NCBI GenBank assembly: GCA_900128395.1
Contig: LT649281.1
Span: forward strand, 1 to 46,291
DNA length: 46,291 nt
Source of the DNA: Stramenopiles sp. TOSAG23-2
Taxonomy: Eukaryota
Direction of reading: 5' to 3'
Shown: piece after piece, positions 9,801 to 44,838 of the stretch
Layout: every line of letters begins with the position of its first letter
Numbering within the stretch: the first letter of the stretch is position 1
The notes under the pieces: generated by a model
What the model saw: the letters and a program-made list of their open reading frames with translations, nothing else
Told to the model about the DNA's origin: nothing
Databases searched by the model: none
Position numbers and translations under genes: made by a program

Positions 9801-12671
9801 TAACATTTTAATGCCTTTTGCAAGATCGTAAAATTTTGTTGCACGTCCAACATCGTTTAACAAATATCGGTAAACAAGCGCCAAGTACATTGCCTTTTGT
9901 TGATTCATTTTGTCATTTTTCCATGTAAAAAAGACAATATGATAAAAAATCAAACTGTCTCTCTTAGTGGTATCAAAACGCAAGCCTTCGTTCATTAATT
10001 CCAAGGCATCATCAGGATTACGTGGATTTTCCATTAAATCAAGCAATGCTTTACTAAAACAAAATAGTGGCATGCGACCTAATACTAAATTGTGTTTTTT
10101 ATGAAATAACTTTGTAAATTCAACATCTAATTCAACTATATGAACATGTAAAAGTTGCATGCATTGAAACGTACGTTCCTCTGCTTTTGACATAACTGGT
10201 ACTGGGATGTCTTCTTGTTTCTTTGTCTTTTCCCCCTCACCTTCACCTTCATCATCATCATCTGATGATAATGTATTAGTCATATCCGCCATTTTATCAG
10301 CAAATGAAAATTTTGAGCTTTTCGTATATGATTCTTTATCTGGCAATTCAATTTCTAAACATTCATTATATTTACCAAAGTAAAAGTTAAACGCACGACG
10401 CTTTTTACCAACAGATATACGCATTAATAATCCTCGAACACGACTTTGCAATAATCTAATATGGTAATACCGATGTGCTACAATATTTTCCATGTTGGTT
10501 AAAACTCGTTCCATACCTTGTTCAATAGCAACTGTTTGTTGCAATTCGTAATATATATCCTTTGCCAAGTAAATTCTAAAAGCACATTGGATAATTAACG
10601 CTTTTGCATTTAAATTTGCTATTCGCATTCTGGCAAATGCTCCTCTTGTTTTTCGCTGCAATTCATTGACCCATATTAATGTACTTTTATATTTATATTG
10701 TTGGATAACACGTCGATAAAATGCTTGTATTTTAACCACAGTCGCTATGACAAATTTAAAAATCTTTTTTGTACCGTTTTCTTCATGCCTATACCACAAC
10801 ATGATGTTTCTTTTTCGCCTATATGCAAGCCATTGACGTATATACGACTGCAAAAACGTAGATGCATCTAATTCCAATCGTATTCTTGCAACATCCATTG
10901 CCCTACCGATAGCTTGAATACGTCCTTGTACACCGCGAAATATACGCTGTATCTGTATAGCCATTTTCCCTAGATGGACAAGGCGATCGTATAAAGCTCT
11001 AATTTCATCAGGTGTCAATTGCAATGGTTTTCCATTGTCTTTTTCGCGTTCAGCTGCTTTGCTACCTGGTCGTAACATTGGGAAAAAATTAACTAGATAT
11101 TTATCAGCTCTAAATTTTGCTGACAATTTCTCAGTAAATCGAATTCGAGCTGCACGTCCACGGTATATTTTCTGAATTTGAGTTGCTGCATGTGTCTTCT
11201 CATTAAATATCCTCTCCCTTTCTTCTCGTAGCGTATCATTTTTAAATTGGTCAAACCATAACGATACTGAATATCGTCTAAAGTTTTTTTGAATTAATGT
11301 AGCAGCAAAAAACCGTTCATGTAATGTAAATGGATCAAAAAGCAACAAGTTTTTTCGTTGGTGATAATAGTTATTATTGATGTCATCGGCGTTGTTATCC
11401 AATGGTGTAGCTTGCCGTGGTACAATATCGGTAACGTTGTTATACTCTGCTGTAATACGTGCCGGTGAAGATGTTATTTGTTGAAGTTGTTGCCTCACTA
11501 GCAATGGGTTTCTTTTATTTTGCAAATTGTTTTCATCGTTTTTAATTATTATTGCATCAATTGGATTGATTATCATATCACTTAGCGATGAATCTGTATT
11601 GTTAAGATTATTTTCATCTGGTGTTGGTGGATAACTTATTCTACCTTTGGTCAATGCTTGATTTAATATATCATTATCATAGTTCACAGCTGCTAATTCA
11701 CGTTCGTCTTTTTGTTCATCAACTTTTACTTTGCTGTTCTCCTCTTTATCAAAATTGTCATCAGCATTATTCTCTGCATTTGTTGGTGATTTCAAAACTT
11801 CATCTTCATATTTTTTCCATAATAATTGATATGTATTACCTGTTAATGCCATTTCTAGCTGTTCTAAATTCGATTCATCTAAATCAAATTTACCACGTTT
11901 CTTCCTTCGACTACTTTTTCTTGAATTAGAACTTTTATTGGATGCTCTAGATATGCTACTACTACTTCCAGAATGTTTTGTGCCGCGGCTATTTACATTT
12001 TGATTATCAACGTGTTTACTGGAGAAAGTTGTCATACTTGTACGTGTACTTATTGCACTATTAGGCGACTTGTATTCTACTATTGACGTATTATTATTAT
12101 TATTATCATCACTACTTTTTTGTTTTGCATTTGGTGACAATTTTTCTTGCATTACCTGTTGGTGTTGAACAAGAGGACTATTTGGTGTTTGGGGCGATTT
12201 CATTACATTATTATTTACATGGCTATCGTATGCAGAATCATTATAATTGATCGAAGAAGACGCTGTTGATGGTGGTAAACTCGGCAACAAGAGGCCTAAT
12301 GCAGTTGGTGATTTTTTAGATAAATGATGTATTTCTCGTAAGCCGCTGCTTACACGCATATTTTTTCGCATGCCACCACTTTTATTAAATAAATTTAAAC
12401 GTTTTGCATCGTGATTTCTAGATTTGACATCCGGCGGTGTACTTATTAAAAGATGTGTTCGCAAGTCTGAATACAACGAATTTCTTGCTTTTAATGTGGA
12501 TTCCTGTGGTGGTTCTGCTATCAATCTACGAGTCCCTTCAGGTGGTATATATTTTGACGGACCCATTAGTCTTCTCTTCCTTTTGTTGTACAATTTTAGT
12601 AATATTGGACTCTGATTGTTGCCAATGTTCCTATTATCATTTTTCGAGAGATTTGGAAACAACCAAGACAT
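6870..12671 (-). CDS. Large multi-IQ-motif calmodulin-binding protein with a WW-like module and TPR-like helices
   Basis: 1933-aa uninterrupted ORF with more than 10 IQxxxRG-like motifs (IQKIYRGRAAR, IQRIFRGVQGR, IQAYFRGILGR, IQSCFRGISSR). WIEVDDP...YWWCQTTNETT is WW-like; YYEAHLCYQKATSLNP is TPR-like. Confidence 0.85.
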   Translation of the reverse strand: MSWLFPNLSKNDNRNIGNNQSPILLKLYNKRKRRLMGPSKYIPPEGTRRLIAEPPQESTLKARNSLYSDLRTHLLISTPPDVKSRNHDAKRLNLFNKSGGMRKNMRVSSGLREIHHLSKKSPTALGLLLPSLPPSTASSSINYNDSAYDSHVNNNVMKSPQTPNSPLVQHQQVMQEKLSPNAKQKSSDDNNNNNTSIVEYKSPNSAISTRTSMTTFSSKHVDNQNVNSRGTKHSGSSSSISRASNKSSNSRKSSRRKKRGKFDLDESNLEQLEMALTGNTYQLLWKKYEDEVLKSPTNAENNADDNFDKEENSKVKVDEQKDERELAAVNYDNDILNQALTKGRISYPPTPDENNLNNTDSSLSDMIINPIDAIIIKNDENNLQNKRNPLLVRQQLQQITSSPARITAEYNNVTDIVPRQATPLDNNADDINNNYYHQRKNLLLFDPFTLHERFFAATLIQKNFRRYSVSLWFDQFKNDTLREERERIFNEKTHAATQIQKIYRGRAARIRFTEKLSAKFRADKYLVNFFPMLRPGSKAAEREKDNGKPLQLTPDEIRALYDRLVHLGKMAIQIQRIFRGVQGRIQAIGRAMDVARIRLELDASTFLQSYIRQWLAYRRKRNIMLWYRHEENGTKKIFKFVIATVVKIQAFYRRVIQQYKYKSTLIWVNELQRKTRGAFARMRIANLNAKALIIQCAFRIYLAKDIYYELQQTVAIEQGMERVLTNMENIVAHRYYHIRLLQSRVRGLLMRISVGKKRRAFNFYFGKYNECLEIELPDKESYTKSSKFSFADKMADMTNTLSSDDDDEGEGEGEKTKKQEDIPVPVMSKAEERTFQCMQLLHVHIVELDVEFTKLFHKKHNLVLGRMPLFCFSKALLDLMENPRNPDDALELMNEGLRFDTTKRDSLIFYHIVFFTWKNDKMNQQKAMYLALVYRYLLNDVGRATKFYDLAKGIKMLPRTHPIAEHCQLFQRIQDDNIKSGDSFHNLLCVTKRRVDDIKLEIRVLRSGDNLLISGQLWDRVRKKREELAKAGKNNLRYAIRGIKEYRRIVMAKEVNEILYRLDRPRLLRPRYGEQLAKAFLPMLVMTTVKGRGQKLDIKFKQEPYPKMTILTTQRQVYLSLVVSQDDNGGLRILAVSEDGNEYKLWFQYKEIRELFLDYPVLWYHRKVPGWRDKGDKLLQMLVANLELHDRKKMVKRVVKDKYELSKWERTLYEEGNLTEEVKYIALDFINSKKRKLNAKNNFAAICIQAYFRGILGREKARLYKIYVMSTKLQQFWRNQRARYFLNLCMWYSRRYWAAVKIQRQMRRFLAIKHSGIYFGELLLLRTIKFKTILWKLQHQTSGVVARFNRNANSISNIINYVSYQIAYKQNYELAKEILAGQRDIGDDDTTATTSTDVEVEGKIIEKKKKKERKPEQPLLIFLKAIVHFLTTPKKKVELKNLLKPTVLLDPKAESFHYFYDIYFNRYALIHYNNPSGNINKAVCDYVLYSKRHEALNNLKQVHESLVNAREAKQWIEVDDPEDEESGLTYWWCQTTNETTHVGMPCPDDAQIEHVESMIAVITDDIRERRRAATKIQSCFRGISSRDQSAGETFKLLVKQKLFVERITIAVEAKLKHEAQEKVMAKLQKAWEKHNKKLIGNKLEPISLVKYKRLLDCKKRGVDYNSEDYSSSDEDSTEEDEDSNDEIESTSDFEPKAIEAYVFYLHLFLHNYKKARWAYENFVSQMPLGDSLQFGNLLLNFAEVEDEEEVEHRIESMESFIMETDMGEPFYDIFDRQILQLSIRKHRYQAKNIAMSKSLLARGIFLQIVRKDYYEAHLCYQKATSLNPSNRSIQCVYNVFIDRGYGAISSPVLQRRKAKIQRLASKLEWRNKKWLERLQRQKELEKKKKDERRRQRKEKRLKEQMEMETFVKGGTTMGRTKKEVGEEEEEPLV

Positions 12672-13771: not shown

Positions 13772-14938
13772 ATGTCAAACGGAGCTAAAAATGATAATAC
13801 CGGTGCATTTATGACCGAGGTTGATGTGCAAGACCAAGAACCTGTATCACGTGTAGAAGATGAAACGTTTCTATTCCAAGAAGATCCAAATAGACAACAA
13901 TTACCAACACAAACACGCTGGCCAATTGTAGCGGAGGACGTTGCTGAAAGTATGGGAATACCAGAGGGGAGGATGTTAAGACAATGGCGTGGCTATTTTA
14001 ATTCAGAACCATGCGCTGCAATCGTTAGAGATATATTTTGGTATTGCTTTTGTAAATTTTATAAAGATGTAAAGAAAGATAGACAGGCAAAATGGGATGT
14101 TAAAAAATTAAAAAACAGAGTTGCTGAAAATTATGCTAAATTATTACATGAAGTTACGGTGAATAATGGTCATCGTGATTTATTTTTACCAGGTATTACA
14201 AATGCAGTTGCACAAGCAGTATTTTTAATATTCTATCATTCATACCCACGTTCAAGGGCAAAGTTGACAGATGATTTTAAAATTAATGTAATAGATACAT
14301 GTTCAGCATGGTTGTCTGGAACAAGGCCATCAAATCCATATTTTCAACATTGGCAAAATTCATTAAAGGAAAAAAAACGTGGTGGTGCATCAATGTTAAA
14401 AAGTAGTAGTGGGGGTGGTGGTGGAAATAGTCCATCTAGCGGTATGCAATTTACTAGAAGAAAGAAAGAAACAGCAGACTCAATGCCAATACGTAGAAAA
14501 GCACGATTAAAGCAACGAACCGTCGCATTTGAACATACTCCATTAATGCATCGTTTTTTAACACATAAACATGGACCAAAATTTAATACGATGACAAAGG
14601 TGAAAGTGCGAATGACAGAGGATCCAGGAAGACCTATTTTATGTAGTGAAAAACCGAAAGTGATTAAAGCGAAACCGGGTGCAGAACAATTAGATGGAAC
14701 GCAAGAAGAAACATTTAAAGATGTGGTACGAGATACAAGGAAACGAATGCAATCTTTAATGTCACAACATACAACTGCATTAACCTTAGTATTAAATGAA
14801 ACAGCCGCAGATAGACGTGAATTATATAGAGCAGAGAAAGAATTAGAAAGTAAATATCAAGCAATTAAAAATACTGATATTCACGAGTATAGTAACTTTT
14901 TAGTGAGCAAAGCTGCAGCAGCAGAGATGAAGCATTAA
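13772..14938 (+). CDS. FAM227: FAM227 (FWWh-domain) family protein
   Basis: IVRDIFWYCFCKFYK, RVAENYAKLL, RDLFL...AVAQAVFLIFYHSYPRS...FK...WLSG match the FWWh domain as I recall it. Confidence 0.8.
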   Translation: MSNGAKNDNTGAFMTEVDVQDQEPVSRVEDETFLFQEDPNRQQLPTQTRWPIVAEDVAESMGIPEGRMLRQWRGYFNSEPCAAIVRDIFWYCFCKFYKDVKKDRQAKWDVKKLKNRVAENYAKLLHEVTVNNGHRDLFLPGITNAVAQAVFLIFYHSYPRSRAKLTDDFKINVIDTCSAWLSGTRPSNPYFQHWQNSLKEKKRGGASMLKSSSGGGGGNSPSSGMQFTRRKKETADSMPIRRKARLKQRTVAFEHTPLMHRFLTHKHGPKFNTMTKVKVRMTEDPGRPILCSEKPKVIKAKPGAEQLDGTQEETFKDVVRDTRKRMQSLMSQHTTALTLVLNETAADRRELYRAEKELESKYQAIKNTDIHEYSNFLVSKAAAAEMKH

Positions 14939-23983: not shown

Positions 23984-24766
23984 ATGTCTACCATAGGTGC
24001 AATTGTCCCACCAATATTAACTACCATATATGCAATGCGCTCATCCGCATTGGATTTATCAGGTATAATAGCATCATGGGTTGTTGGTGTACCAACTGGT
24101 TATGCATCCCATAGAATGATGTTACATGTAAGTTTATTATATTAGCCATACAATTACCATATAAATATATATATCACATAAAAATTGCTTTTTTAAATAT
24201 CTATACTAACAGCACACACACACACACAGTTATATTTATTTTTTTTCTCTTCTTCTAGAATAACAAGAGTTGGTGAAGGTATTAAAAAAGTATTAGAAGG
24301 AAATGAATTTAAAAAAGGTGGTGGAAGGAATTATATTCAAGTATTTTCTAATGGTGGATGGCAAACAATTATTGCATCTTTATATATTTATTTTTTTCGT
24401 AATCAATTATTGTTTTCTTCTCAAAAAAACCAAAAAAAAAAAAAAGAGAAGGAAGAGGAAGTGGAAGGAAAAAAACCAACAACAACAATAATGAAAAATC
24501 AAAAAGATCAACAAATGATAATCGATAAAGATAATGAAAATATTTCTTTAAAAACATATTTACAATGCTTCAGTTTAGCAGCATATGCATGTTCTTGTGG
24601 TGATACATGGGCATCTGAATTAGGTATCTTATCACAAAGCAATCCAAGATTAATTACAATGCCATGGAAAATTGTACCGTATGTATTTATTTATTTTACA
24701 TCTTCTTCTTCTTCTTTTATTATATTACATTAAGGCTATTATCTAACATATAAATACATACATACA

Positions 24767-24812
<46 letters not shown>

Positions 24813-25279
24813 AACATAATAATATATACAGAAAAGGTACAAATGGTGGTGTTAGTTTTATTGGATTATTAGCTTCGGCAGGTGGTGGAATATCAATTGG
24901 ATTAGGACATGCTATATATGATTTAATTTTTGTTCGTAGTTATAAACGTTCAATCAGTAAATTTAAAATCTTTACATCTACTGTATTATTTGGTGGATCA
25001 ATGGGATTAATTGGTAGTATGATCGATTCCATATTAGGTGCATTTTTTCAATATAGTGGTAGTGTTGATATTACCGTAGGCAAAGAAGTTATTAAACGTA
25101 TAGTAACAAATCCAAATCATCCAAATAATAAATGGATTACCGGTATCAATATATTATCAAATCATCAAGTCAATTTGATTTCCATCATTTTAACATCATT
25201 TATTGGATATTATACATCAGAATATTTCTTTGGTATTGAAAAAATAAAACGAAGAAATAGAAAGGAGATCAAAAATTAA
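23984..25279 (+). CDS. TMEM19: TMEM19 / DUF92 integral membrane protein (3 exons: 23984-24127, 24230-24678, 24832-25279)
   Basis: Spliced product contains LDLSG, FFFSSSRIT, GGGRNYIQVFSNGG, ACSCGDTWASELG, VPKGTNGGVS (formed across intron 2), GSMIDSILGAFFQ and LSNHQVN. Both introns are GT-AG with CTAAC. Confidence 0.93.
24754..24812. repeat. (CATA)n/(TA)n microsatellite in TMEM19 intron 2
   Basis: Directly visible in the sequence. Confidence 0.95.
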
Positions 25280-25611
25280 GAAATTAAAAGAGTGTTTTGT
25301 GAGTGTAAGAAGTGTTTTGTTTTTAAAAGTCAAGAGACACTCTCCATCAAGAATCAAGATAAAAGCTATGATATCAATGCTATCATAAAAAATACGAATC
25401 AAATACGAACCGGTTCGTGGTTCGTATCATACAGCATAGCTATGCATATGCATACGTGTAAAACACAAGAAACACTCTTAAAACAGTAAAACACATCAAA
25501 TTTAGAGGGTAAAAAGTACTTAAAGTACTCGTACTTTTTAAAAATATACGACGCGTATAAAAATAGAACAATTCTCCCTCTACTCTCTACTCTCTCTCTC
25601 TCTCCTCTCGC

Positions 25612-28600
25612 TCACATCTTTAATACGACTGGAACACCGTAACAAATTGTCGCAGATCCATTTAAAAACGGTAATTTGATATTTTTTATACCACGTCGCT
25701 TTCCAATCAGTTTCATATTTGTCCCATCATGATCTTTTAATGAACTTTTCAAAATATCATTCAGCCATTTACCTTTTTCACATGATGCTATATTATTTAA
25801 TAATCGCATTGCTAATATGTCACAATCACCACTACTAACTTTCCATAAATTCGACACAACAGCTGGACAACCAGCACTGATTAAACTAAACACTTTACCA
25901 TGAGATCCAAAACGACCTTTTGTATAAAGTCTACCACTATTACAACCCATATCAAAAATAATACAATTCGTTTCATTGGAGGATTTTGCTACTTTTCCAG
26001 AGCTTGTAAATTTCATAAGACTATCATGTCCCCAATATGTCAATACTTCTGATGTATTTAATAAATTCATAATATCGTTTGATGCAGGTTTTTTACCAAT
26101 TATAATTCGCTCCGTATTACTAATACCTGATAATAAATCGGATAACGCGCCGTTACAAGTATCACCATCTTTCAATTTACAAAAGTTTTTCTCTGTTTGT
26201 GGCAAATTACGTTCTGGATTAATTACATATGAACTGTTCGATAACTTGTAACATGTTTGAGTTTTTTTCTCGCTAGATGAGACTCGTTCCCATAAATCTA
26301 ACAATGAATGAATTGAAGGCATTCTAGTCACGTGGATATCATGAAATGTCTTTGTAGATTCCCATGGAAAACATTGCATTTCTGATCCTAAAATAAGAAT
26401 GATTGGATTGTTTTTCGATGATGATAACGACATATTCGACATTTTACTTTCTAACGATGATGATGATTTGGAATTGCCAAAATTAAAGACTGAAACCAGC
26501 TCATCTAGTTTTTCTATTAATGTTTTCATATCATTTTCTATCTCATACCTGCTTTTCCACCAATTCTTTTTAGCATTATTATCACTCGTATCAATATTAC
26601 AAGCATCATCTAAAGTTTTTTCATTATTCATTTGTATTTTATTAAAGTTATTCAATAATATTTCCATTTGGCTGCTTGTTATTTGAATCGCTTTCATAGC
26701 TATTTCTCCATTTCTGACATGCGTCATTACGATACCTAAGTGATTATCATAATACATAGAGACAACATCCCAATTATTAACCTGTTGAAGCTTTTTAAGA
26801 CGTAACATTGTATGCTCTTGTGTATTTTTTAATGACGATAATGTTGGATTAAATCGTTTAAAAAGTGTCTTCTTATTGCTGCTGTTGCTGCTAATATTCT
26901 GGTTGCTGCTGCTATTATTATTATTATTATTATAATGCCATAAATCGTATGATAAACCAATTGAAAGCAATGCCAACACACCAATGCTGCTACTATTATT
27001 ACTACTAGACCCAGCACCTTTCTTACTATTCAAGCAATAATATTTTGTTCCAACATATCCACGTAATACTTGACGTGTAATGAACGGTATTGATAAACCC
27101 CAAACAAAACGTGCAGCTGTTTTACAAGAATCAAGTGCAAGTATATTTTGTTTCGGTTTTATTTTTGATTGAAAATAACATAATACCGCACGTTCAATAG
27201 GTAATTTACATATTTGGAAGCATTTTTTCATCATTTTTCGAACAATATCGTCTGTTTTCTCATAATTGGTAGACTTTAAATGTAATTCTAATTCATGAAA
27301 CATTTTTTCTTGCTCCATATTTAATATTTTCGTGCAATGATCAATTTGAAAGCCTGATGATTTTTCACTACTACTACTACTACTACAAATCCATGATTTA
27401 TCAAGAACATCACTATCTTTTCCGGAGCAAAACAATTTCAACATGCTGGATATTAATTTATTTACATGTTTTATTTCCGACTTTGCACGTTGACTATTTC
27501 CAATGAATACACTATGTTCAATATGACCAAGTCCTTGTGCTAATGTATTTACACATATTTTACTTGTTTTTGTAATGCGAAATGGTTTAAATGTTATTTT
27601 TTCTTCGTCATCATCCTTCCTAATAAATGATTGGCATCGTACATTTGTTAAAATATCAAGTTGCAATTGAAACGTCTCATACCTTGTGTTTGCCCTCAAA
27701 ACTTTAGTTAAATCGATTCCAGTTGATAAATATGCTTTGGAGCATGATGGTAAACATCGTTGTTGATACAATACATTCATGAATGATAAAAACGAGATAT
27801 AAGTTTGTATAACTGGCCATGAATTTAAAGGCAAAGTTGATATAATATTGCCATTATTATCAATATCATTTTCTTCCTCTTCGTCGCCGTCCATCGTTGT
27901 TGGTTCTAATGTTAAGTGATTAACTTTACGATGATAAAATAAATCTGCACGCTTTGCAAAATCTAATGCATTACCCATTTGACCGATTGCATGATGTAAA
28001 CGTGACATCGTAAACATATGTTTACCATATGTTGGATCAAATTTAGATATAGCACATACATTTTTTTTCAAAGTTTCTAATTCATGTTTTAAATGTTCAA
28101 TATTATATTTTGTATGCAATTTTAATTCTTCTTTTAACAATTTATATGAAATGGATAATGTTGATGATTTTGCCATCGTCGATGATGGTTGAATAGTTTT
28201 CAAAATATTTATAGCTATCGTTGTAAATCCTTGATTATATAAAGTTTCAACAAGCTTTAACTTAATATCAATAAAATCAGGTTGTATTTTTTTTAAGACG
28301 TATTGAACGAATACATTTTTCGCCATATAATGACGAGCATGATCTTCCCATCCTAATGCTTGTCGAAACAATTGAATCTCAATATCGGTTTCATTATAAA
28401 TGTTAAAAATAATTGCTACATTTTGCAATAACGCAACAGTTGGTTGCATTATATACCATGGGTATTTGATGGTTTTAATGTACTGTCCATTTACGTGTTG
28501 TAATTTTGCAATTGACTTTTTTAACAATTGGAATCTATCAATTGTGCATGAATTATCAGTATTATACAATCCATAGATAATATCACGCCATCCTAACAAT

Positions 28601-30126
28601 ATGAATTGCTTGCTATAATCTTTTGTAGCAAATACAATATCGAATTGTTGAAATAATTCATTTATTGAAAAACGACTATGTTTTACAATATCCTCCTTTT
28701 CAATGTTTTTTAACAATAAAATATTGTCAAACAAACTGATGGACCAATGCAATATAAATCTTGTTGGATTGCTTTGTTTTGCAAAATAATTACGCATAAC
28801 AGAATGAACTGCGCAATAACCATTCAAACACATTTCTTGCACAATAGTTTCATCTCCAGCTTCTAATATATAAAATTTATATGCCTCAGATATTCGATGG
28901 AGTATAAAACATTTCGTTTCATTTATCATGGAGTTGTTGTTATCATTCTCCACCATTGATTTAGCAAACGTTTCCCATAACATGTTAGATAGAAACGACT
29001 CTTTTTTTACCTTGTATTTTCGTTGCCATCTCGCTTGGTTACCAATAATCATATTTACGATTTTCTGTATAAAACTACATGCATTATTGTAATTATTATT
29101 ATTATTATTATTGGAAATATATGTTAAAATTGATCGTGTTAATATATTCAAATCAATTGATCGATTGTTTTGATCTGGTGGTGTTGGTGATGATGATTGT
29201 ATTGTTTTATCATTTAGTGATAATAATTTTTTATAAGTTGCAAAACTATATTGATAACGTGCAAAAACAATATGATCATGATTATTGCCATTATCACTGG
29301 TAGCATCAGCAGTAGCAGCAGCAGATGATGTATCAAATGCACACGATGTCAACATACTTGATATAAAAAATAAATTGTAATAACAATCAATGGAAGACGA
29401 GACTAGTTCTTTTTCTAAATAAACTGCAGTGCGAAACGTAATACTTGCTAATTTTCTTAAAAGTTCCTTTGATTGTATCTTCGAGCATATAATTTCACTT
29501 TGAAAAATATCACCTAACGTTTTATTTGTATTTTGATGATGATTATTATTATTCATATATATATTAATTGTATGAAAAAAAATGTGAAAATAAATGATTT
29601 TTTCACTTAATTGTGCAGAACTTATTTCAACTAATTTTTTTAACATCGTTGTAATTGGTTTCATGAGAATTTTTTTCGTACTATCGCTGTCAAAAATAGA
29701 GTTGGTTGAAGTAGTATTAAAGGCAAACCACCAACATGTATTGTTATTATCGTTTTGTTTTGTTTTTTTATCATCATTAGTCGTTTTATTGTTCTGTTTA
29801 TTATGAATGTCGTTATTATTTTCATTATTATTATTATTTTTGGAATTACAAATAGTTACAGTTTTCTCCAAAATCGATAGACATTTCTGCAATATATGTT
29901 CTTGTAACGAACCTTGTATCTCTTTCGATTCTTTGTATTCCTCATAGGATTCAAGTAATTTCACATCGCCTTTCTCTTTTTCAATTAATTTTTTTGGCGT
30001 TATAATGTATTCCAACCGTTTATTTAAATGTTTATAAATTTTTCCTAATCCTTCATTAGTTTTACATCCTTTTAACTTGATGGAAATTTTTTCAAAATCA
30101 CGAATAATTTTTTTCACAAACGCCAT
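25612..30126 (-). CDS. ESP1: Separase (peptidase C50), divergent
   Basis: 1504 aa. C-terminal motifs KNWWKSRYEIE, LILGSEMQCFPWES, VTRMPS, YVINP, catalytic His in YWGHD and Cys in MGCNSGRL, AGCPAVVSNLW and FLNGSATICYGVP. Long helical N-terminal region. Confidence 0.92.
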   Translation of the reverse strand: MAFVKKIIRDFEKISIKLKGCKTNEGLGKIYKHLNKRLEYIITPKKLIEKEKGDVKLLESYEEYKESKEIQGSLQEHILQKCLSILEKTVTICNSKNNNNNENNNDIHNKQNNKTTNDDKKTKQNDNNNTCWWFAFNTTSTNSIFDSDSTKKILMKPITTMLKKLVEISSAQLSEKIIYFHIFFHTINIYMNNNNHHQNTNKTLGDIFQSEIICSKIQSKELLRKLASITFRTAVYLEKELVSSSIDCYYNLFFISSMLTSCAFDTSSAAATADATSDNGNNHDHIVFARYQYSFATYKKLLSLNDKTIQSSSPTPPDQNNRSIDLNILTRSILTYISNNNNNNNYNNACSFIQKIVNMIIGNQARWQRKYKVKKESFLSNMLWETFAKSMVENDNNNSMINETKCFILHRISEAYKFYILEAGDETIVQEMCLNGYCAVHSVMRNYFAKQSNPTRFILHWSISLFDNILLLKNIEKEDIVKHSRFSINELFQQFDIVFATKDYSKQFILLGWRDIIYGLYNTDNSCTIDRFQLLKKSIAKLQHVNGQYIKTIKYPWYIMQPTVALLQNVAIIFNIYNETDIEIQLFRQALGWEDHARHYMAKNVFVQYVLKKIQPDFIDIKLKLVETLYNQGFTTIAINILKTIQPSSTMAKSSTLSISYKLLKEELKLHTKYNIEHLKHELETLKKNVCAISKFDPTYGKHMFTMSRLHHAIGQMGNALDFAKRADLFYHRKVNHLTLEPTTMDGDEEEENDIDNNGNIISTLPLNSWPVIQTYISFLSFMNVLYQQRCLPSCSKAYLSTGIDLTKVLRANTRYETFQLQLDILTNVRCQSFIRKDDDEEKITFKPFRITKTSKICVNTLAQGLGHIEHSVFIGNSQRAKSEIKHVNKLISSMLKLFCSGKDSDVLDKSWICSSSSSSEKSSGFQIDHCTKILNMEQEKMFHELELHLKSTNYEKTDDIVRKMMKKCFQICKLPIERAVLCYFQSKIKPKQNILALDSCKTAARFVWGLSIPFITRQVLRGYVGTKYYCLNSKKGAGSSSNNSSSIGVLALLSIGLSYDLWHYNNNNNNSSSNQNISSNSSNKKTLFKRFNPTLSSLKNTQEHTMLRLKKLQQVNNWDVVSMYYDNHLGIVMTHVRNGEIAMKAIQITSSQMEILLNNFNKIQMNNEKTLDDACNIDTSDNNAKKNWWKSRYEIENDMKTLIEKLDELVSVFNFGNSKSSSSLESKMSNMSLSSSKNNPIILILGSEMQCFPWESTKTFHDIHVTRMPSIHSLLDLWERVSSSEKKTQTCYKLSNSSYVINPERNLPQTEKNFCKLKDGDTCNGALSDLLSGISNTERIIIGKKPASNDIMNLLNTSEVLTYWGHDSLMKFTSSGKVAKSSNETNCIIFDMGCNSGRLYTKGRFGSHGKVFSLISAGCPAVVSNLWKVSSGDCDILAMRLLNNIASCEKGKWLNDILKSSLKDHDGTNMKLIGKRRGIKNIKLPFLNGSATICYGVPVVLKM

Positions 30127-30835
30127 AATTATTACGTTATTATTGTATCAATGTAACAATGTATATCAGCAAGACTGTCTTTTTTGTTTCCGTCGTTACT
30201 TTGTGTTATCGACGTTTGTTCCACGTATGTGATGTATGTATATCATATATTCGATAATAATTTTAATATATATATATATTTTATTATTTCTTGTTTTTGG
30301 GCATCGATCGATTATTATTAGCATACGAATAGTATGGGAGCAGTCGGATTGAGGGAGTGGACAGGTGCAATCCATGTGAGGGAGTAAAATATATTATTTG
30401 AAAAAACGCCAACACGAATATAGCATAGGAATAGCACCTAACGTCTTCATCAACTATCAAATGACAATAATTTATACTTGAAAAGGGAATTAGAATACTA
30501 AATACACACGTCAATAATATGGATTTTCATACATAAAAACAAAAAATAAAAAACAATACATATATATAGTTGGGTAGATAGATAGATATATTTCTTTTGG
30601 TAGTGTGATTCAAACATAAGATTATTTTCTAACGTATTGTATTAACGTATATATGTTTATATAAATTAAATTTCACGTATAAATTACTATAATCGATTTC
30701 GTAATTTGAAAACACACACACAAAAAAAAGAACGAGAAATACGAATCGCAAGAGCATTTTGTTTTTTAATAATTTTAATTTCGTCAAACTATATATATAG
30801 ATCTATAAGCACGCAAAAAGTTATAGTTTAGAAAC
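30127..30835. promoter_or_regulatory. Putative bidirectional promoter between separase and the securin-like gene
   Basis: 709-bp spacer between two divergent ATGs. No specific motif established. Confidence 0.45.
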
Positions 30836-31453
30836 ATGTCATCCTTTATCAATCAAACAAACTTATCAAAGGAAAATCCTAATAATCATCATCCAAATAT
30901 GATTATGAAACAAAAATCTACTTTAAAAGGGAAAAAAAGTGGTGGTTTAAAAGTACGTAAACCATTAGGCCAAATAAACGCAAATGTTGGAACAACGTTA
31001 AAACATAATCATAGTAAAAATAGTGGCATCAAGAAACAACAAAAAACATTTAGAAAACCATTAGGAACAATCAGTAAAAATTCGATCAATGTAAATAAAT
31101 CCACTGTTCCAAATGTGGAAGCATGGCCTAAATCAAATACTAAACATGTTGAATATTTTCCATATGCAGAGAAACCATCGGCAAAAACATTTTTAAATAA
31201 TTTAACGAAATGTAATAATAATAATAATAATAATAAAAATAGGAAAGTTGTAGAAATTGACCATGAAGAGACAAAACATTTAATAACAAGTGGGTTTGAC
31301 AATGATGTAGATGATTTGGTTGGTACAAAAAGTCTTGTCGTTAATAGTAGTAAAAAAGGTGGTTTGCTTGGATCATTAATTGGTGATATGGGTGATGAAG
31401 ATTTATCTGATTTAAGTTCATCTGATGATGATAGTAGTAGTGATGATGAATAA
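30836..31453 (+). CDS. Securin-like APC/C substrate (candidate separase inhibitor)
   Basis: 205 aa with disorder-type composition. KEN box at aa 12-14, D-boxes RKPLGQIN (41-48) and RKPLGTISKN (73-82), PNVEAWP (92-98), HVEYFP (104-109), Lys-rich N-half and Asp/Ser-rich tail. Confidence 0.7.
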   Translation: MSSFINQTNLSKENPNNHHPNMIMKQKSTLKGKKSGGLKVRKPLGQINANVGTTLKHNHSKNSGIKKQQKTFRKPLGTISKNSINVNKSTVPNVEAWPKSNTKHVEYFPYAEKPSAKTFLNNLTKCNNNNNNNKNRKVVEIDHEETKHLITSGFDNDVDDLVGTKSLVVNSSKKGGLLGSLIGDMGDEDLSDLSSSDDDSSSDDE

Positions 31454-31762
31454 ATTACATATGCATATATATGTAATATGATATATATTAAAGTATCGTA
31501 ATGATAAATAAATAATAACAAATGTCGCGAGGACGAGGTATTTTACATGGTGTATAATATCAAAGTCCCCAATTACTTGTTCGTAGATGTGGAGGTTGCA
31601 TTTGTATATGTAGTAAACTTATATTGTGCGTGTAAAAATAAAAACAATAAATTTAAAAAAAATAATATGGAAAAATTCTCTAGAGATAGAACACTTTTTT
31701 ATACACGAGTATTAACTTTTACTTTTTCGTACGTATGATATGATATGATATGATATCGGTAT

Positions 31763-34700
31763 TTACAACGTTTCCAGTTTATTATTACCATCGTCCATCC
31801 TTCTTCTCAATGGACTATTGTTGGTTCCTGCAGCAACCGGGTTTGATTGAACCAATCGGCGTCTAATACGTCGATGTCGACTACTGCCGCGTATGACCCA
31901 ATTCAATTGATCTGAACTTGGCCATGCCTTTGATAATAACGTATCAGTAGTATTCATTGAATTACCACGACTTGGTGCTCGTAATACAAGAAGTGAAGGA
32001 AATGTACCGCTTTTTCTATTATTCGATTGGCTATTTTTTGTGTAATTATTATTATTATTACCACCACCACCAGATGATTGCATGTATGATGGTTGCTCTA
32101 CATCCTCGTATCTTTTGCGAGTATCCATTTTCTTGAATCCATTACCTTCCATAGTATTTAGCTCACCGTCATCTTCATATCGCCTACCACTGCTTTGTCC
32201 ACTACTGCTGCCACCCATGTCACCGAAATCACCTTCCATAAAATTCATCATATTACCGCTTTGGTTGTGAAGTTCACTTCCAACTTCTGGAGTTGATGGC
32301 AATTGATCGTATAAAAAAGAACTTTTACGACGTATTGGTACCGATGCAGCTTGCCCTATCAACATATTATTATTATTATCACCACCTCCAGTACTTTCCA
32401 TAAATTGTAATTCACTGGATAATGGACGAATACGTTTGGGAGTTGGGGGAGGTATAAACAATGTATGGAAGTTAACAACGTATACTAATTCTGACCTACG
32501 CTCTTTTTTTCTTGATTTCTTCCCAAACATTATAGTAGAACCATTCTGAAGACTAACTCGAGCTATCGAACACCTTTTACCATCAACATACGTGCCATTT
32601 GTACTATTACAATCTACCAAATGCATTTGAGGAACACCTTTATTATCAAATGTGCTATATATCATGGCATGAACTTTACTAACCATTCGACTTTGAATTT
32701 TAGAATCCAGTACCAAATCACAACTTCTTTCTCTACCAACAACAGTTCTCCCTTCATAAATACGCAATTCCTTTGGTATGTCACGCAATATTTCTTCATC
32801 TATATTATTACTGTTAAAAGTTGCTGGATTCAAGTTATTGTTGTTGTTGTTGTCATTATTATTATTGTTGTTGTTGCTAGAAGATGATTTAGAATCTTCT
32901 ATTAATTGTAAAGTTGCACAAATTGGTCTTGACGGTGATGGTAATATCTTTGTTTTTGCATTACTCTTTTTCTTGACATTTGTTTTAATTGGCGTTGGCA
33001 TCAAATTGTTTGCACCATTAGAGATACCACCACCACTCATCATTAAAGTTGATTTTTGAAGTGTGCCGCTGTTATTATTTGACAAGCGCATCATCATATT
33101 AGGTTGCTTTGGCGGCGTTTCTATTGCGACTGGACTTGGTTCAACTGTATGAAGTGGGAATATTTGTCTAGGTGGTTGCTGGCGTTGTTCAAGGTCATTA
33201 TATGGTGTACCATTCATCATGGCGCCTTCAACATTTTGCACTGCATTTTTCAGCATATTAATAATTGTTTCATATTTTGGCAAAGTTCGCTCCTCCTCTA
33301 TATCATCTTTATCAACAGGTATTGGCTCAGCAAATGTCGGACTGACACGTCCTTTTCGCTTTTTCTTAGTCGATTTAATTTGTTTTACATTTTTGCTTGT
33401 ATCCTTTTTCTTATTATTACCCCCAAAGAAAGTTTTCCCTGTACCAACATTATTAACCATGGATCGAAGGAGATGTTCGCTTTTAATTGTTTTCTTCTTC
33501 GTATTTTTCTGTTTTCCCCTCTTGTCCATGGTTGATTTTGCAACTGTTTTTTGTTTTTCTTTGATTTCATCTTCCATATCTTCTAGCTCAAATGTATCAT
33601 CCTTATATTCAAACTCATCATCATCATAGTTTCCATCTTCACTACTATCTGGTATTATCTTGCGCCTATCACCCATCTTCGTCGCTTTTTTCATTTTCTT
33701 ATTTTGTTTTGGTTTAATACCCTTTTTTAATGCCATTTTCTTTTTATGTTGTTTTAAATAATTACGTCGTTTTAAATCGTTTAACGATTTTGGTGGGTGT
33801 TTTAAATAATCGTCTACGTCTTCTTCAATCCCTTGTTTAAATTCAGTTATTAATTGTTTATGTACAGATTGCAAAGGCTTATCGTTCATATGATCCAAAG
33901 TCAAAGCGTAAAAATGCTTCTCTTTTTCCATCTTGAATCGTCTGCTCTTCTCAATTGCCATTTTTTTCGCTAATTTATCTTGCTCTTTCAACGTATCAGA
34001 TATTTTCCTCATTCGTTTTATATTTGTTTCTGTTAACTTAATCTCTTGATCTAAACGTTGGATATTGGATATTTTCTTCCTTGTCCGTTCTAAGCTGGCT
34101 TTTGCTTGCATTTCAACAAATTCCACATCTTTGATTTCTTGTTCATCTAATTTAACAGTTTGATCCTTTTTAGACAATAACTGTGGTTTGAACAACATGT
34201 TTTTCTTTATTTTTCGTGGTGCAAATAAATCCTCGCCACCACGTTGTGTACCATTTAACTTTCGTCGGGCACGTATCCGTTTTATATGTTGCTGTATCAT
34301 CCGTTGGCTCCGACCTGATGGAGTTTCTGTTTTCCCATCTAACACGTCTTGTCCAACTAAAAATCGCGGCGAAGTTAATTTTTTACGTATATATTTCTGA
34401 AGATCGGTAACTGAAGGTTTTCTAATTTCCAACGACAACTGTATTGGTGCGGAAGATGCATTTAATGATTGTCTCAACGTTTTTGTATCCATTGTACTAC
34501 GCAAAAATTTGTAAAAACTATCAAAATTTCGCTCTACACCAGTTGCCATGTGAAAACGTTTGGTCATCGTAGAACGTTTCGGTTTCTTTGCTATATAATA
34601 ATCTTCTTTCTCGCTATCACGAAATACACCAACAACGTGGTTAGTAATAAAATGCCCACAATAACAAATCAATGGCTTCGTACTATCGGCAACACCAAAT

Positions 34701-36378
34701 TTATTACAATCACATTTTGAACAGTATCCATACCTATCTGCATCTCCTATACGGTATGAATTACCCATGCCATGGCCTGTACCTAATTTTTTAATCAATA
34801 AAACACTTTTTAATCCATTTATATGCTGACGCCTATATGCTTCACGTCGATCAAACAAACACCTGGCGAGATATCCGCGTATCATTTTTTGTATCAAAAT
34901 TGCACTACGCTTACGTTTTGCAACTAATTTTCTATAAAGTACCATTGTAATATGTTTTTTATGTCTAGCAAGAATCCAATTTTTAATATATATTCCACTA
35001 GCTACTTGTAACTTTATACGATTTGCAGTCGCTATACGTTGCAACGGTTTTCTACTTTCATATAATTTTTCAACAATTAATTTATGATCTCTAGCCCACT
35101 TTAACCTTTTTAATTTGTTTCTGCCTAATTTACCTCTCATGAATTTTTGCAAAAATGTTGCTGCGTCGATTTGATCTAACAAGTGCAAAACGTAATTTCG
35201 TGCTAGTTTACCACGCATGACAGCTTGTATTTTAATTATTTTTCGTAAATATTTTTGTTGTCCAATTTTTTTAATAACTTTAGCCAGAAATTTTTTTCTA
35301 AATACATACATTTTCCATGTTGCTTGAATTTTGGCTGCACATTTGATTTTTAAACGCAGCAAATCGACAAAATTACGCGCAGCTTTGCCTCTATATATTC
35401 GCTGTAACTTAACAATGAAAAAGTTCATCTTTTTCAATCTTGCGATTTCCTTTAAAGCATCTTCTACCATTTTTGCAATACGACCTTGTGCTTCCCGCTT
35501 ACCCAACATCCGTCGAAAAAAACCTTGTAACAAAATTGCAGCATTGAGACGGGCCTCTGTGAAAAATAAACATACATATATATATAAATCATGTGTTAGT
35601 GTATAAATTAAAATGTATGTGTATGTGTGTATATATATATATTACGTTATGTTAGATACTTACCAGGTTCTAAATATTTTTTATAATACCATTCTTTATA
35701 TTTACGATGTGGAGTTAACACTTTATATTTAATCTTTTCTTTTGTTCTATGTATGCGATTTTTAAAATTTTGCACAATTTTCCTAGGATCAATACTTTCT
35801 CTTTTTTTCTTTTTGCTACTTCCAAAAATAGCCTCTAATGCTGCTTTTTGATCACCAACCCCTGCTTCTAGTAGTGGTACGATTTTAATAGCATGCCCAC
35901 ATTCAATAGCATAATCTTTCGCAGTTTTCCCATACATATTGGTTAAATCTACTGAACAACGTGGTCGTTTTTGTTCATCAAATAATAAAGTTGGAATTAA
36001 TAAACTATATCCTGCTTTACAGGCTTCAATTAGTGGTGTCATACCAAACTTATTTTCATAATCTGCATCTGCACCACGCTCGATGAGTTTGCGTATTGGC
36101 ACCCTTAAACCATATCTACATGCTGCTATCAATGGTGTATTACCATATGTATCTTCCCAATTTACGTCTGCACCATAATTATCTATTAGCATATATACTT
36201 TCTCAAAATCACCTTTTCGCATAGCATCTGTATAATCAGCATATATAACGCGAAGACCTTCTCGTTTCTCCGCTTCAACTCTTGCTTTAGCCTCCTTTAA
36301 CTTGGCCTCGTAAGCTAACTTTGCATCTGCTTCCGCTTGTTTTCTACGCTCTTCAACAAGCTTTTTCGCTGCATCCAT
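31763..36378 (-). CDS. Ankyrin-repeat + IQ-motif + Cys/His cluster + FHA-domain protein (2 exons; intron 35557-35663)
   Basis: Ankyrin repeats (GNTPLIAAC, GMTPLIEAC, GKTAKDYA). A GTAAGT...CTAAC...CAG intron gives in-frame EPE-ARLNAAILLQGFFR. About 6-7 IQ motifs. FHA motifs VVGR, MVSKVHA and DCNSTNGTYVDG. Confidence 0.88.
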
Positions 36379-43311: not shown

Positions 43312-44838
43312 TCACTTACGAAAGAAAGACGATGAATTCCCACCACCACCACCACCTTTCTTTTTATTGTTTGATGATTTGCCACGTTTGTTCTTGTTTT
43401 TACTTTTATTATTATTATTATTATTATCACCACCCCCATTACCATTACCACCACTTTTTTTATTATTACGTTGAAAAGGTGATTTTGAACGATTTCGATT
43501 ATTATTATTGTTTTTGTTATTCTTTTTTGTCTTGTTGTTATTATTACTTCTTGGTGATTTGGAACGGTTGCGATGTTTATTATTATTATTGTTGTTGTTG
43601 CTGTTGTTGTTGTTATTATTTTTACCACCCTTTTTCTTCTTATCACCACTAAAAACCATGCGAGAATCTTTCTTTCGATTATTATTATTATTATTTCGAC
43701 TTCCACCACCACCACCACTCCTACGGGAACTCCAACCAGGCATCATATCTCTCATACTAGGACGCATTTCATTTGCTCTTCCACCACGATCTGGTACAGT
43801 TCCAATAATAACACTTTTTACTGTACTGTTTAAACTTGCCTCGGTTACACGTATTTCCTGTTCTTCACGTAAAGATGGTGTTGCATCAAAGATTTTATTT
43901 GGATTAATAACCGGACGTGGTTCTTTCAATTGTTTTATTAATGGATCAATTGCATTTAATAATTCATCTTCTTGACCAACAACTTTATCAGACCATAAGA
44001 AAGATTGAATGGTAACATCCAAACGTTTTATTAACATTTGCCTTCTTACATCATAATCCGAACGCATTGCTTTACTAATGTCAGATAATATACTCAATTC
44101 TTCTGGCGTTTGTGCTGAACGTTTTAATAATCGACGTGTTTGATCAAAGTAATTATCTGGTAATTTACGTTTCAATGATTTTACTTTTGAATGTATCATA
44201 TCCAACATTTCCATATTTGATAAATTTTGATATTTTTTATCTTTAATGGATATCCTAAAATGTGTAAATATACGTTCCAAACAATTACGTATTAAATCTT
44301 GGTTAATACCGGTAGTATCAGCACTGTTTTGAGATTTTTTTTTCTGTTTCATTGTGTTATTATTGTTGGTTTTGTTGTTGGAATTAAGTGTTTTTTCTTT
44401 GTATAATCGTATCTTATGTACACGTTGAATTTGTACATCTGTTGTTAAAAAATCAAGAATAATCGTTGCATTGTAATTATTAAATGTATTTCCTGTTAAA
44501 TTTTTTGGATTTGATAATGGATATGGAGAACCACGCAATTTAAATAACAATAACACTGCATTGAATGATTTAGATGCATGTTGTAAGTTACGTATTTCTT
44601 TATCATGAACTAGCGATGTAATTAAATAATCATGTAATGTACCACAAATAGTTAAAAATTCAGTAGATTTTAATGCCCAACTTGGTATTTCTGTTTCCGT
44701 TTTTAATGGTATTATGTTTGGTATTTTTAAATCAATTAATTTCACATGTACATCTTCATATCTTGTAGCAAGGTTTGCATGGTTATTATTATTGTTATCA
44801 TCATTCTCCACATCCATAGAATTCGAAATCGATGCCAT
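43312..44838 (-). CDS. FAM98: FAM98 family protein (DUF2465; tRNA-ligase complex subunit family)
   Basis: DYDVRRQMLIKRLDVTIQSFLWS and IIGTVPDRGGRANE are hallmark motifs. Low-complexity N/K/G tail. Confidence 0.9.
   Translation of the reverse strand: MASISNSMDVENDDNNNNNHANLATRYEDVHVKLIDLKIPNIIPLKTETEIPSWALKSTEFLTICGTLHDYLITSLVHDKEIRNLQHASKSFNAVLLLFKLRGSPYPLSNPKNLTGNTFNNYNATIILDFLTTDVQIQRVHKIRLYKEKTLNSNNKTNNNNTMKQKKKSQNSADTTGINQDLIRNCLERIFTHFRISIKDKKYQNLSNMEMLDMIHSKVKSLKRKLPDNYFDQTRRLLKRSAQTPEELSILSDISKAMRSDYDVRRQMLIKRLDVTIQSFLWSDKVVGQEDELLNAIDPLIKQLKEPRPVINPNKIFDATPSLREEQEIRVTEASLNSTVKSVIIGTVPDRGGRANEMRPSMRDMMPGWSSRRSGGGGGSRNNNNNNRKKDSRMVFSGDKKKKGGKNNNNNNSNNNNNNNKHRNRSKSPRSNNNNKTKKNNKNNNNNRNRSKSPFQRNNKKSGGNGNGGGDNNNNNNKSKNKNKRGKSSNNKKKGGGGGGNSSSFFRK

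Follow-up and report, generated by a model that had tools for sequence, protein, structure and literature searches.

The contig LT649281.1 of Stramenopiles sp. TOSAG23-2 (GenBank assembly GCA_900128395.1), analysed over its whole length of 46,291 nucleotides and referred to as the window in the following, encodes separase, the protease by which sister chromosomes are split, and, directly beside it in head-to-head orientation, a 205-amino-acid (aa) protein, ORF205 (ORF, open reading frame), which is probably a lineage-specific securin, that is, a disordered inhibitor of the adjoining separase; the probability of this reading is put at roughly 0.65. It is supported because a KEN box, destruction boxes (D-boxes) and an NVExxPK motif have been kept in the ORF205 family while the linkers in between diverged, and because the gene is linked to separase. 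The original prediction, made from the letters of the window, had proposed a previously unrecognised securin, which is sustained as far as a real, conserved and predicted disordered protein with securin-type islands and a presence in poly(A) libraries is concerned, but neither by significant similarity to known securins nor by docking motifs. That separase and securin are a conserved pair of divergent genes among stramenopile-like marine picoeukaryotes of one uncultured clade, and with this the first such genomic linkage, is a more tentative proposition, which we hold to be possible rather than probable.

The neighbour of ORF205 is readily recognised as separase. This ORF, which runs without interruption as a single frame on the minus strand, contains the Peptidase_C50 domain and the catalytic His/Cys dyad, and its C-terminal 270 aa match the solved separases 5fc2, 5u1s, 7nj1 and 5mz6 (Chaetomium, yeast, human and C. 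elegans) in a PDB search with E-values of 2.4e-19 to 9e-14. Because H1367, C1395, D1434 and D1436 are invariant in 24/24 aligned separases, the separase that has ORF205 as its neighbour looks catalytically intact. The predicted arrangement, a divergent head-to-head pair with 709 bp between the start codons, is borne out by the ORF coordinates (Table 1).

ORF205 itself is, judged by its relatives, a real and conserved gene. A word-based search with ORF205 retrieved seven proteins and an exhaustive hidden Markov model search of 1.84 billion cluster representatives retrieved ten at E <= 0.001, six of them at <= 1e-10 and two at <= 1e-30, whereby several of the ten are fragments. The full-length homologues fall into about five lineages with 36-73% identity to the window protein, descending from P0002, P0003 and P0004 (70-73%) via P0024, P0033 and P0007 (55-59%) to P0084 (44%; 196 aa, E 6e-10) and P0083 (36%; 201 aa, E 4e-11), the two distant full-length members. 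All derive from marine metagenomes, with one entry from EukProt. The designation of the gene as an orphan was consequently wrong; on these matches ORF205 is lineage-restricted, yet no orphan. P0006, 158 aa long and encoded by a contig of 522 bp, matches ORF205 including KEN box and D-box 1 over its first ~76 residues and contains methyltransferase Pfam domains in the remainder; it is probably an assembly chimera, with a rearranged locus as the alternative.

Conservation in the family was assessed with a 7-residue profile based on six lineage representatives (P0004, P0024 and P0007 being dropped as near-duplicate or truncated), the maxima of which fall on the two D-boxes, on residues 94-98 and 116-120 and on the C-terminal block. 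NVEAWPK is among the top peaks with a mean of up to 0.95, and only the DLSDLSS block (0.98) is higher. In the nine-sequence alignment used for motif counts, of which P0007 lacks the N-terminus, two D-box-like sites occur in all eight full-length members, with the equivalent of D-box 1 being R-x-P-[LF]-G in 8/8 members having that region. Equally, S115, F119 and N122 are invariant in the SAKTFLNNL/helix region, G[LI]L[GC]SLIxD is found in 9/9 members and DLSDLSS is exact in six of the nine and reads ELSDLSS in the other three. Two ExxP motifs had originally been put forward as pseudosubstrate candidates, of which one stands. NVEAWPK recurs in all nine members, while VEYFP is present in six and is replaced by VDYFP in P0004, TQYSAY in P0083 and FSYRAA in P0084, so that only Y107 is invariant within the VEYFPY region. 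Because NVEAWPK is under family-wide constraint and VEYFP has been lost in the most distant members, the alignment suggests the former as the better pseudosubstrate candidate.

The further features listed in the original prediction, with a KEN box, two RKPLGxI D-boxes, NVEAWP, VEYFP, a basic N-terminal half and an acidic tail, have all been located in ORF205, the net charge of which amounts to +17 in residues 1-100 and to -10 in residues 101-205. Single motifs of this kind are common, with KEN alone arising in 14.6% of ORF205 shuffles, and the argument therefore rests on their combination and, more strongly, on their conservation. In fact, the ordered set KEN < R..L..[ILVM] < [ILV]E..P arose in 5 of 200,000 ORF205 shuffles and the set with two D-boxes in none of 200,000. 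No Pfam family was detected in ORF205 at E <= 0.1, and AlphaFold2 supplied with the family alignment predicted a single helix at residues 116-128, with a mean predicted local distance difference test score of 54 and a predicted template modelling score of 0.14, low values that fit an intrinsically disordered protein. Two characteristics of the securin class, small size (205 aa) with predicted disorder and, at the motif level, N-terminal KEN and D-box degrons, are accordingly found in ORF205.

Transcription of ORF205, which the original prediction presupposed, is indicated by a comparison of positions 25000-32000 of the window with contigs assembled from three marine RNA libraries, each prepared by poly(A)/oligo-dT selection and each from a different study. 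The RNA-library contigs cover ORF205 collinearly (X1, 30640-31173 with 1 mismatch; X2, 30655-31445 in 5 pieces; X4, 30895-31294), display no joint inside the ORF and reach upstream to about 30640. The mid-intergenic bins 29914-30381 lack coverage in 3/3 runs and the 3' end of separase (25618-26553) is covered in 3/3; coverage is equally missing from the centre of separase (27808-28743) in all three runs and patchy over the 5' third of the gene, as expected for 3'-biased libraries. Such a distribution is more in keeping with transcripts than with contaminating DNA. In X1 and X2, the match of the contigs to the window ends just upstream of 30571, directly behind an AG at 30568-30569, and dissimilar sequence continues from there; a chimeric contig, divergence between strains or, in the transcript of ORF205, a splice acceptor of the 5' untranslated region could account for this break. 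In X1, the depth rises to a spike of 70 at 31552-31785, which stems from A-rich contigs of 31-35 letters at 31633-31665 and probably represents low-complexity cross-matching.

The linkage of the two genes has been followed beyond the window. A scan of metagenome contigs identified three loci with ORF205, all 99% identical to the window, and the head-to-head arrangement is kept in both of the same-species contigs that reach far enough, with gaps of 719 bp (L001) and 714 bp (L003); the third contig starts 82 bp before ORF205. In a distant lineage, the homologue P0084 (NCBI, JGI/IMG, ENA) and the separase P0074 (NCBI, P0037 cluster) each have a longest contig of 23,133 bp, and the homologue P0090 and the separase P0072 each have a longest contig of 34,280 bp. 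Because two exact coincidences in size occur, they are best explained by P0084/P0074 and P0090/P0072 sharing contigs, and at most about 18 kb would therefore separate homologue and separase in this lineage, whose separase (P0074/P0072) is only 27% identical overall to the window separase. The cross-lineage linkage rests on the P0037-cluster separases, the homologue contigs of the P0036 and P0035 lineages being too short to show neighbours. Separases of the P0036 lineage are carried by long contigs (36,048, 20,531 and 18,574 bp), and P0028 by a contig of 253,058 bp. Immediate adjacency is seen in same-species contigs, and linkage in a distant lineage is suggested by contigs that appear to be shared. 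Scans of viral contigs, with either the separase or the ORF205 alignment as query, did not find a locus, and two scans of genome contigs did not find one either.

Securins are barely recognisable by overall sequence. The conserved features described in PMC6690013 are only the KEN box, the D-box and an otherwise variable patch in which a Glu is invariant, in agreement with the layout of a KEN/D-box followed by a Glu-bearing patch that the original prediction had used. For human securin, the pseudosubstrate is reported to be 113-EIEKFFP, with the change of 118-FP to RE making securin cleavable (Rosen et al., PMC6858450), which assigns E115 to P4 and F118 to P1, and a 2023 review gives the separase site as (S/D/E)xExxR, with securin replacing the P1 Arg (PMC10317155). 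Aligned to this consensus, ORF205 would adopt the register N93(P6)-V94(P5)-E95(P4)-A96-W97-P98(P1)-K99, which provides an invariant-Glu patch devoid of a P1 Arg as a partial fit with Asn at P6; compared with the human motif, P1 is Pro versus Phe and P6 is Asn versus Glu. Vertebrate securin (PTTG1; PF04856; 7NJ1, 7NJ0) shares with ORF205 a length of ~200 aa and disorder, the human protein being numbered to 202 residues (PMC6858450) and hence, as originally stated, about as long as the 205 aa of ORF205. It equally shares the succession of an N-terminal KEN box, a D-box and an [IV]-E-x-Phi patch near residue 100-115. Unlike vertebrate securin, ORF205 possesses two D-boxes and another conserved C-terminus, and has neither LPE/NxLxPhiE motifs nor significant homology.

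Plant PATRONUS/RSS1 proteins resemble ORF205 in being recognised by KEN/D boxes and an invariant-Glu patch in spite of extreme divergence, and the C-terminal half of PANS1 is reported to mediate separase binding (PMC6690013). PATRONUS is, however, backed by genetics, pull-down and two-hybrid experiments, whereas ORF205 is known from sequence and compared by motif layout. The fungal securins Pds1/Cut2 (5U1S, 5U1T) are extended antiparallel pseudosubstrate inhibitors with N-terminal degrons for APC/C, the anaphase-promoting complex/cyclosome (PMC6858450). Yeast securin carries a VPE/LPE-type exosite motif downstream of the pseudosubstrate, of which ORF205 has no equivalent, and no sequence similarity between the two was detected. 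Fungal Pds1/Cut2 are also longer. Furthermore, the ORF205 gene adjoins separase; the separase and securin genes of human, yeast, fly, worm and Arabidopsis are not known to be linked. Taken by layout, spacing and overall length, ORF205 matches the securin pattern well.

A mechanism can be envisaged in which the basic N-terminal third of ORF205, with the conserved motifs KEN (residues 12-14) and D-boxes (41-48 and 73-80), would carry the degrons for APC/C. NVEAWPK (93-99), which fits the motif, would sit in the active site of separase as an uncleavable pseudosubstrate with E95 at P4 and P98 in place of the P1 arginine. The downstream islands, Y107, the helix 116-128, an I-D-x-x-E-T...F block at 141-154 and GLLGSLIxD...DLSDLSS at 176-195, might run antiparallel along the separase surface by analogy with the solved securin complexes, with the C-terminal block GLLGSLIGDMGDEDLSDLSS possibly contacting the helical domain of separase. 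At metaphase, APC/C-Cdc20 would ubiquitinate the N-terminus of ORF205, upon which its degradation would allow separase to cleave cohesin. The head-to-head layout may keep both products co-expressed, a purely conjectural benefit for this locus, and such co-expression would be well matched to a chaperone-like securin that binds separase during translation, as has been put forward for human securin (PMC10317155).

Several observations weigh against a securin. At P6, the proposed pseudosubstrate invariably has Asn and not S/D/E; a motif scan of ORF205 gave no match to the LPE-type docking motif [LVF]P[DE], and by inspection its sequence has no NxLxPhiE. LPE and NxLxPhiE have been reported in human securin and Scc1 (PMC10317155), and LPE is described as conserved in vertebrates and in only 'some lower eukaryotes' (PMC6858450). 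The Pfam Securin profile PF04856 matched 2/9 family members (12.5 bits, E 0.15; 11.1 bits, E 0.4), collinearly from the KEN box onwards with residues 11-133 against profile positions 8-109, which may be read as a weak hint. These scores lie under the 22-bit cut-off and among equal or better chance matches (Na_K-ATPase, E 0.0046), and ORF205 itself has no PF04856 match. Against PDB, whole ORF205 gave no match at E <= 10, residues 85-135 gave CDK5 only (E 2.4) and the family profile gave six matches, no securin among them and none with E below 0.45, with the securin-bearing 7nj0_A in the library. The nearest named ESM Atlas cluster is a cyclin-B1-like N-terminal fragment at 0.88, which is below 0.9 and a lead only; this language-model signal may reflect the APC/C degrons alone, and with cyclin families excluded ESM Atlas provided no usable match. 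The RNA evidence consists of assembled, strandless contigs of depth 2-5, and the sole raw-read run (X23) gave 0 reads on the region. With respect to linkage, the equal contig sizes from which it is deduced across lineages give neither distance nor orientation, and a 19,534-bp contig with a member of the P0084 cluster has no size-matched separase among the 12 listed cluster members. Equally, because at least five divergent gene pairs were counted in the window (gaps of 684, 1100, 709, 430 and 397 bp by ORF coordinates), such pairs are common and head-to-head orientation alone means little. A complex prediction of separase residues 700-1504 with ORF205 residues 85-205, run with no family alignments, yielded 0.00, 0.50 and 0.33 against a mark of 0.34, with controls of 0.00, 0.00 and 0.01, and is counted neither for nor against binding.

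The alternative that survives best, which we regard as unlikely though deserving attention, is that ORF205 is a substrate or regulator of APC/C that does not act on separase, such as an Acm1/Mes1-type inhibitor, a sororin-like cohesion factor or another mitotic regulator, and lies beside separase by coincidence. The KEN and D-boxes as generic APC/C degrons, the cyclin-B-like fragment as nearest named language-model cluster, the frequency of divergent pairs in the window and the lack of significant securin similarity are all compatible with it, and the N-terminal region of cyclin B, Acm1 and Mes1 equally possess disordered segments with D-box and KEN. Acm1/Mes1-type APC/C inhibitors combine an ABBA motif with D-box and KEN. 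YFPYAE (residues 107-112) of ORF205 fits a loose ABBA-type pattern only in the species of the window; the acidic end is lost in relatives (YFPYAQ, YFPYAP, YFPYTQ) and the motif as a whole is gone in P0083 and P0084, which speaks against an Acm1/Mes1 type. Membership in another family of APC/C substrates, equally considered in the original prediction, received no support from Pfam either, as no Cyclin_N, Sororin or other Pfam domain matched at E <= 10 in 9/9 members apart from chance-level matches. Unlike cyclins, ORF205 has no cyclin box and, unlike Acm1/Mes1, no conserved ABBA-like motif, whereas its best-conserved island outside the C-terminal block mimics a separase site and is no degron. 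Furthermore, the separase linkage recurs, as suggested by equal sizes, on two contigs of a distant lineage, and a random APC/C substrate would be expected beside separase in ~1% of cases or fewer by a rough, uncomputed estimate.

Still less likely, in our opinion, is a lineage-specific disordered protein of unrelated function that has kept KEN, RxxL and ExxP for other reasons. Short linear motifs are 'not always unique' and can converge (bioRxiv 10.1101/2024.01.07.573240), the K/N-rich composition of ORF205 favours KEN in shuffles and the conserved GLLGSLIxD...DLSDLSS block has no known securin counterpart. The rarity of the ordered motif set in the shuffles, with or without the second D-box, the persistence of all motifs while the linkers diverge and the linkage of the gene to separase nevertheless argue against it. 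A chance open frame in AT-rich intergenic DNA, for which the long antisense frame described below provides a precedent, hardly merits consideration: same-length homologues with 36-73% identity in several lineages, length variants that remain in frame (two additional Asn codons in L003, a 3-letter gap in an RNA contig) and the coverage by poly(A) RNA-library contigs oppose it, and conservation in particular effectively refutes it.

A securin in this group of organisms has to be seen in the light of a changing record. A 2011 survey reported securin homologues only in Metazoa and Dikarya (PMC3195147), plant PATRONUS securins followed (PMC6690013) and a 2025 preprint describes securin as widespread, detected by short motifs (bioRxiv 10.1101/2024.01.07.573240). 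The original prediction presupposed lineages in which securins count as missing; taken to mean all groups other than animals, fungi and plants, this premise is partly outdated. No paper on the adjacency of separase and securin genes was found as judged by titles and abstracts, and none describing a stramenopile securin, diatoms and Phytophthora included, on the same basis, which candidates in supplementary material would escape. The gene linkage is potentially the new element, with securin itself already reported as widespread. Securin evolves fast, was unknown outside animals and fungi until 2019 and continues to be identified chiefly through short motifs, a kind of sequence that is open to convergence (bioRxiv 10.1101/2024.01.07.573240). 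With linkage to separase kept over a large divergence as independent evidence, a candidate would be more clearly identified than by its motifs alone, and the gene upstream of separase might, if the reading is true, provide a sequence-independent route to securins in protists where homology searches fail. ORF205 would equally offer a natural pseudosubstrate variant (P1 Pro, P6 Asn) to be used in the analysis of separase specificity, whereby any functional work will necessarily be heterologous as the source organism is uncultured.

Table 1. Features of the separase/ORF205 locus, in positions of the window
Feature	Position	Strand	Remarks
Separase gene	25612..30126	-	1504 aa; Pfam Peptidase_C50, E 6.8e-43
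Peptidase_C50 catalytic region, residues 1231-1432	25831..26436	-	Pfam
Catalytic Cys1395	25942..25944	-
Catalytic His1367	26026..26028	-
Divergent intergenic region, presumed promoter region of both genes	30127..30835	.	709 bp
Direct repeat, candidate cis-element	30350..30385	+	two exact TGAGGGAGT copies
ORF205, securin-like gene	30836..31453	+	homologues, predicted disorder, RNA-library contigs
KEN box, residues 12-14	30869..30877	+	motif scan; 8/9 aligned members, ninth (P0007) without N-terminus
D-box 1, RKPLGQIN, residues 41-48	30956..30979	+	fits RxxLxxxN; consensus as given in PMC6690013
D-box 2, RKPLGTIS, residues 73-80	31052..31075	+	R73 and I79 invariant in 9/9 members
NVEAWPK, residues 93-99, proposed pseudosubstrate	31112..31132	+	N-V-E-[AE]-[WY]-P-K in 9/9 members
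VEYFPY, residues 105-110, second ExxP motif	31148..31165	+	not kept family-wide
Sole predicted helix, residues 116-128	31181..31219	+	overlaps conserved SAKTFLNNL block
C-terminal block GLLGSLIGDMGDEDLSDLSS, residues 176-195	31361..31420	+	conserved; followed by acidic Ser/Asp tail

The intergenic region between the two genes is 98% identical in two same-species contigs and as such too similar to show conservation. TGAGGGAGT occurs in it twice in exact form at a spacing of 27 nt, as part of an imperfect direct repeat of 22 nt, and nowhere else in the window without a mismatch; when one mismatch was permitted, four matches were counted in the window versus 3.17 expected, hence no enrichment. 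The pair is regarded as an unverified candidate cis-element.

Strain variation has been observed in both genes. In-frame indels of +6, +6 and -9 nt occur in RNA contigs of separase at 26160, 26415 and 27367, with the +6 at 26415 present in all three runs, and represent, as their reading frame indicates, polymorphism in length that is subject to coding constraint. In ORF205, the poly-Asn run (31214-31234) varies by strain, with two extra codons in the L003 copy (10001-10624). The non-synonymous variants G36S, K125R, N133S and G177C of ORF205 are mostly located outside the conserved motifs; G177C lies inside the GLLGSLI block at its one variable position, where Cys is found in P0003/P0004 as well. 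The same-species ORF205 copies differ by five substitutions in total, which are too few for a ratio of non-synonymous to synonymous substitution rates.

Tail-to-tail with ORF205 at a distance of 309 bp, a protein of 1256 aa with IQ motifs and an FHA domain is encoded (31763-35533, minus strand), and the same gene order beside ORF205 is seen in the contigs L002 and L003. A low-complexity ORF of 170 aa antisense to ORF205 (31009-31521, minus strand) is most likely a by-product of composition bias and no gene. Just past the 3' end of separase and convergent with it, the ORFs 24410-24733 and 25001-25279 on the plus strand match the Pfam family DUF92 (integral membrane protein) at profile positions 72-148 and 193-250. 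This DUF92 gene is split into at least two successive ORFs, and introns therefore exist in an otherwise intron-poor genome, in which most genes of the window are single long ORFs. Proteins with an FWWh domain (13772-14938) and of the DUF2465 family (43312-44838) as well as a 1933-aa IQ-motif protein (6870-12671) are encoded elsewhere in the window; these presumably fit a flagellated eukaryote. In keeping with a stramenopile-like origin, as a hint from one gene only, the best named relatives of the 2-hydroxyacid dehydrogenase of the window are from diatoms and Ectocarpus with 39-43% identity.

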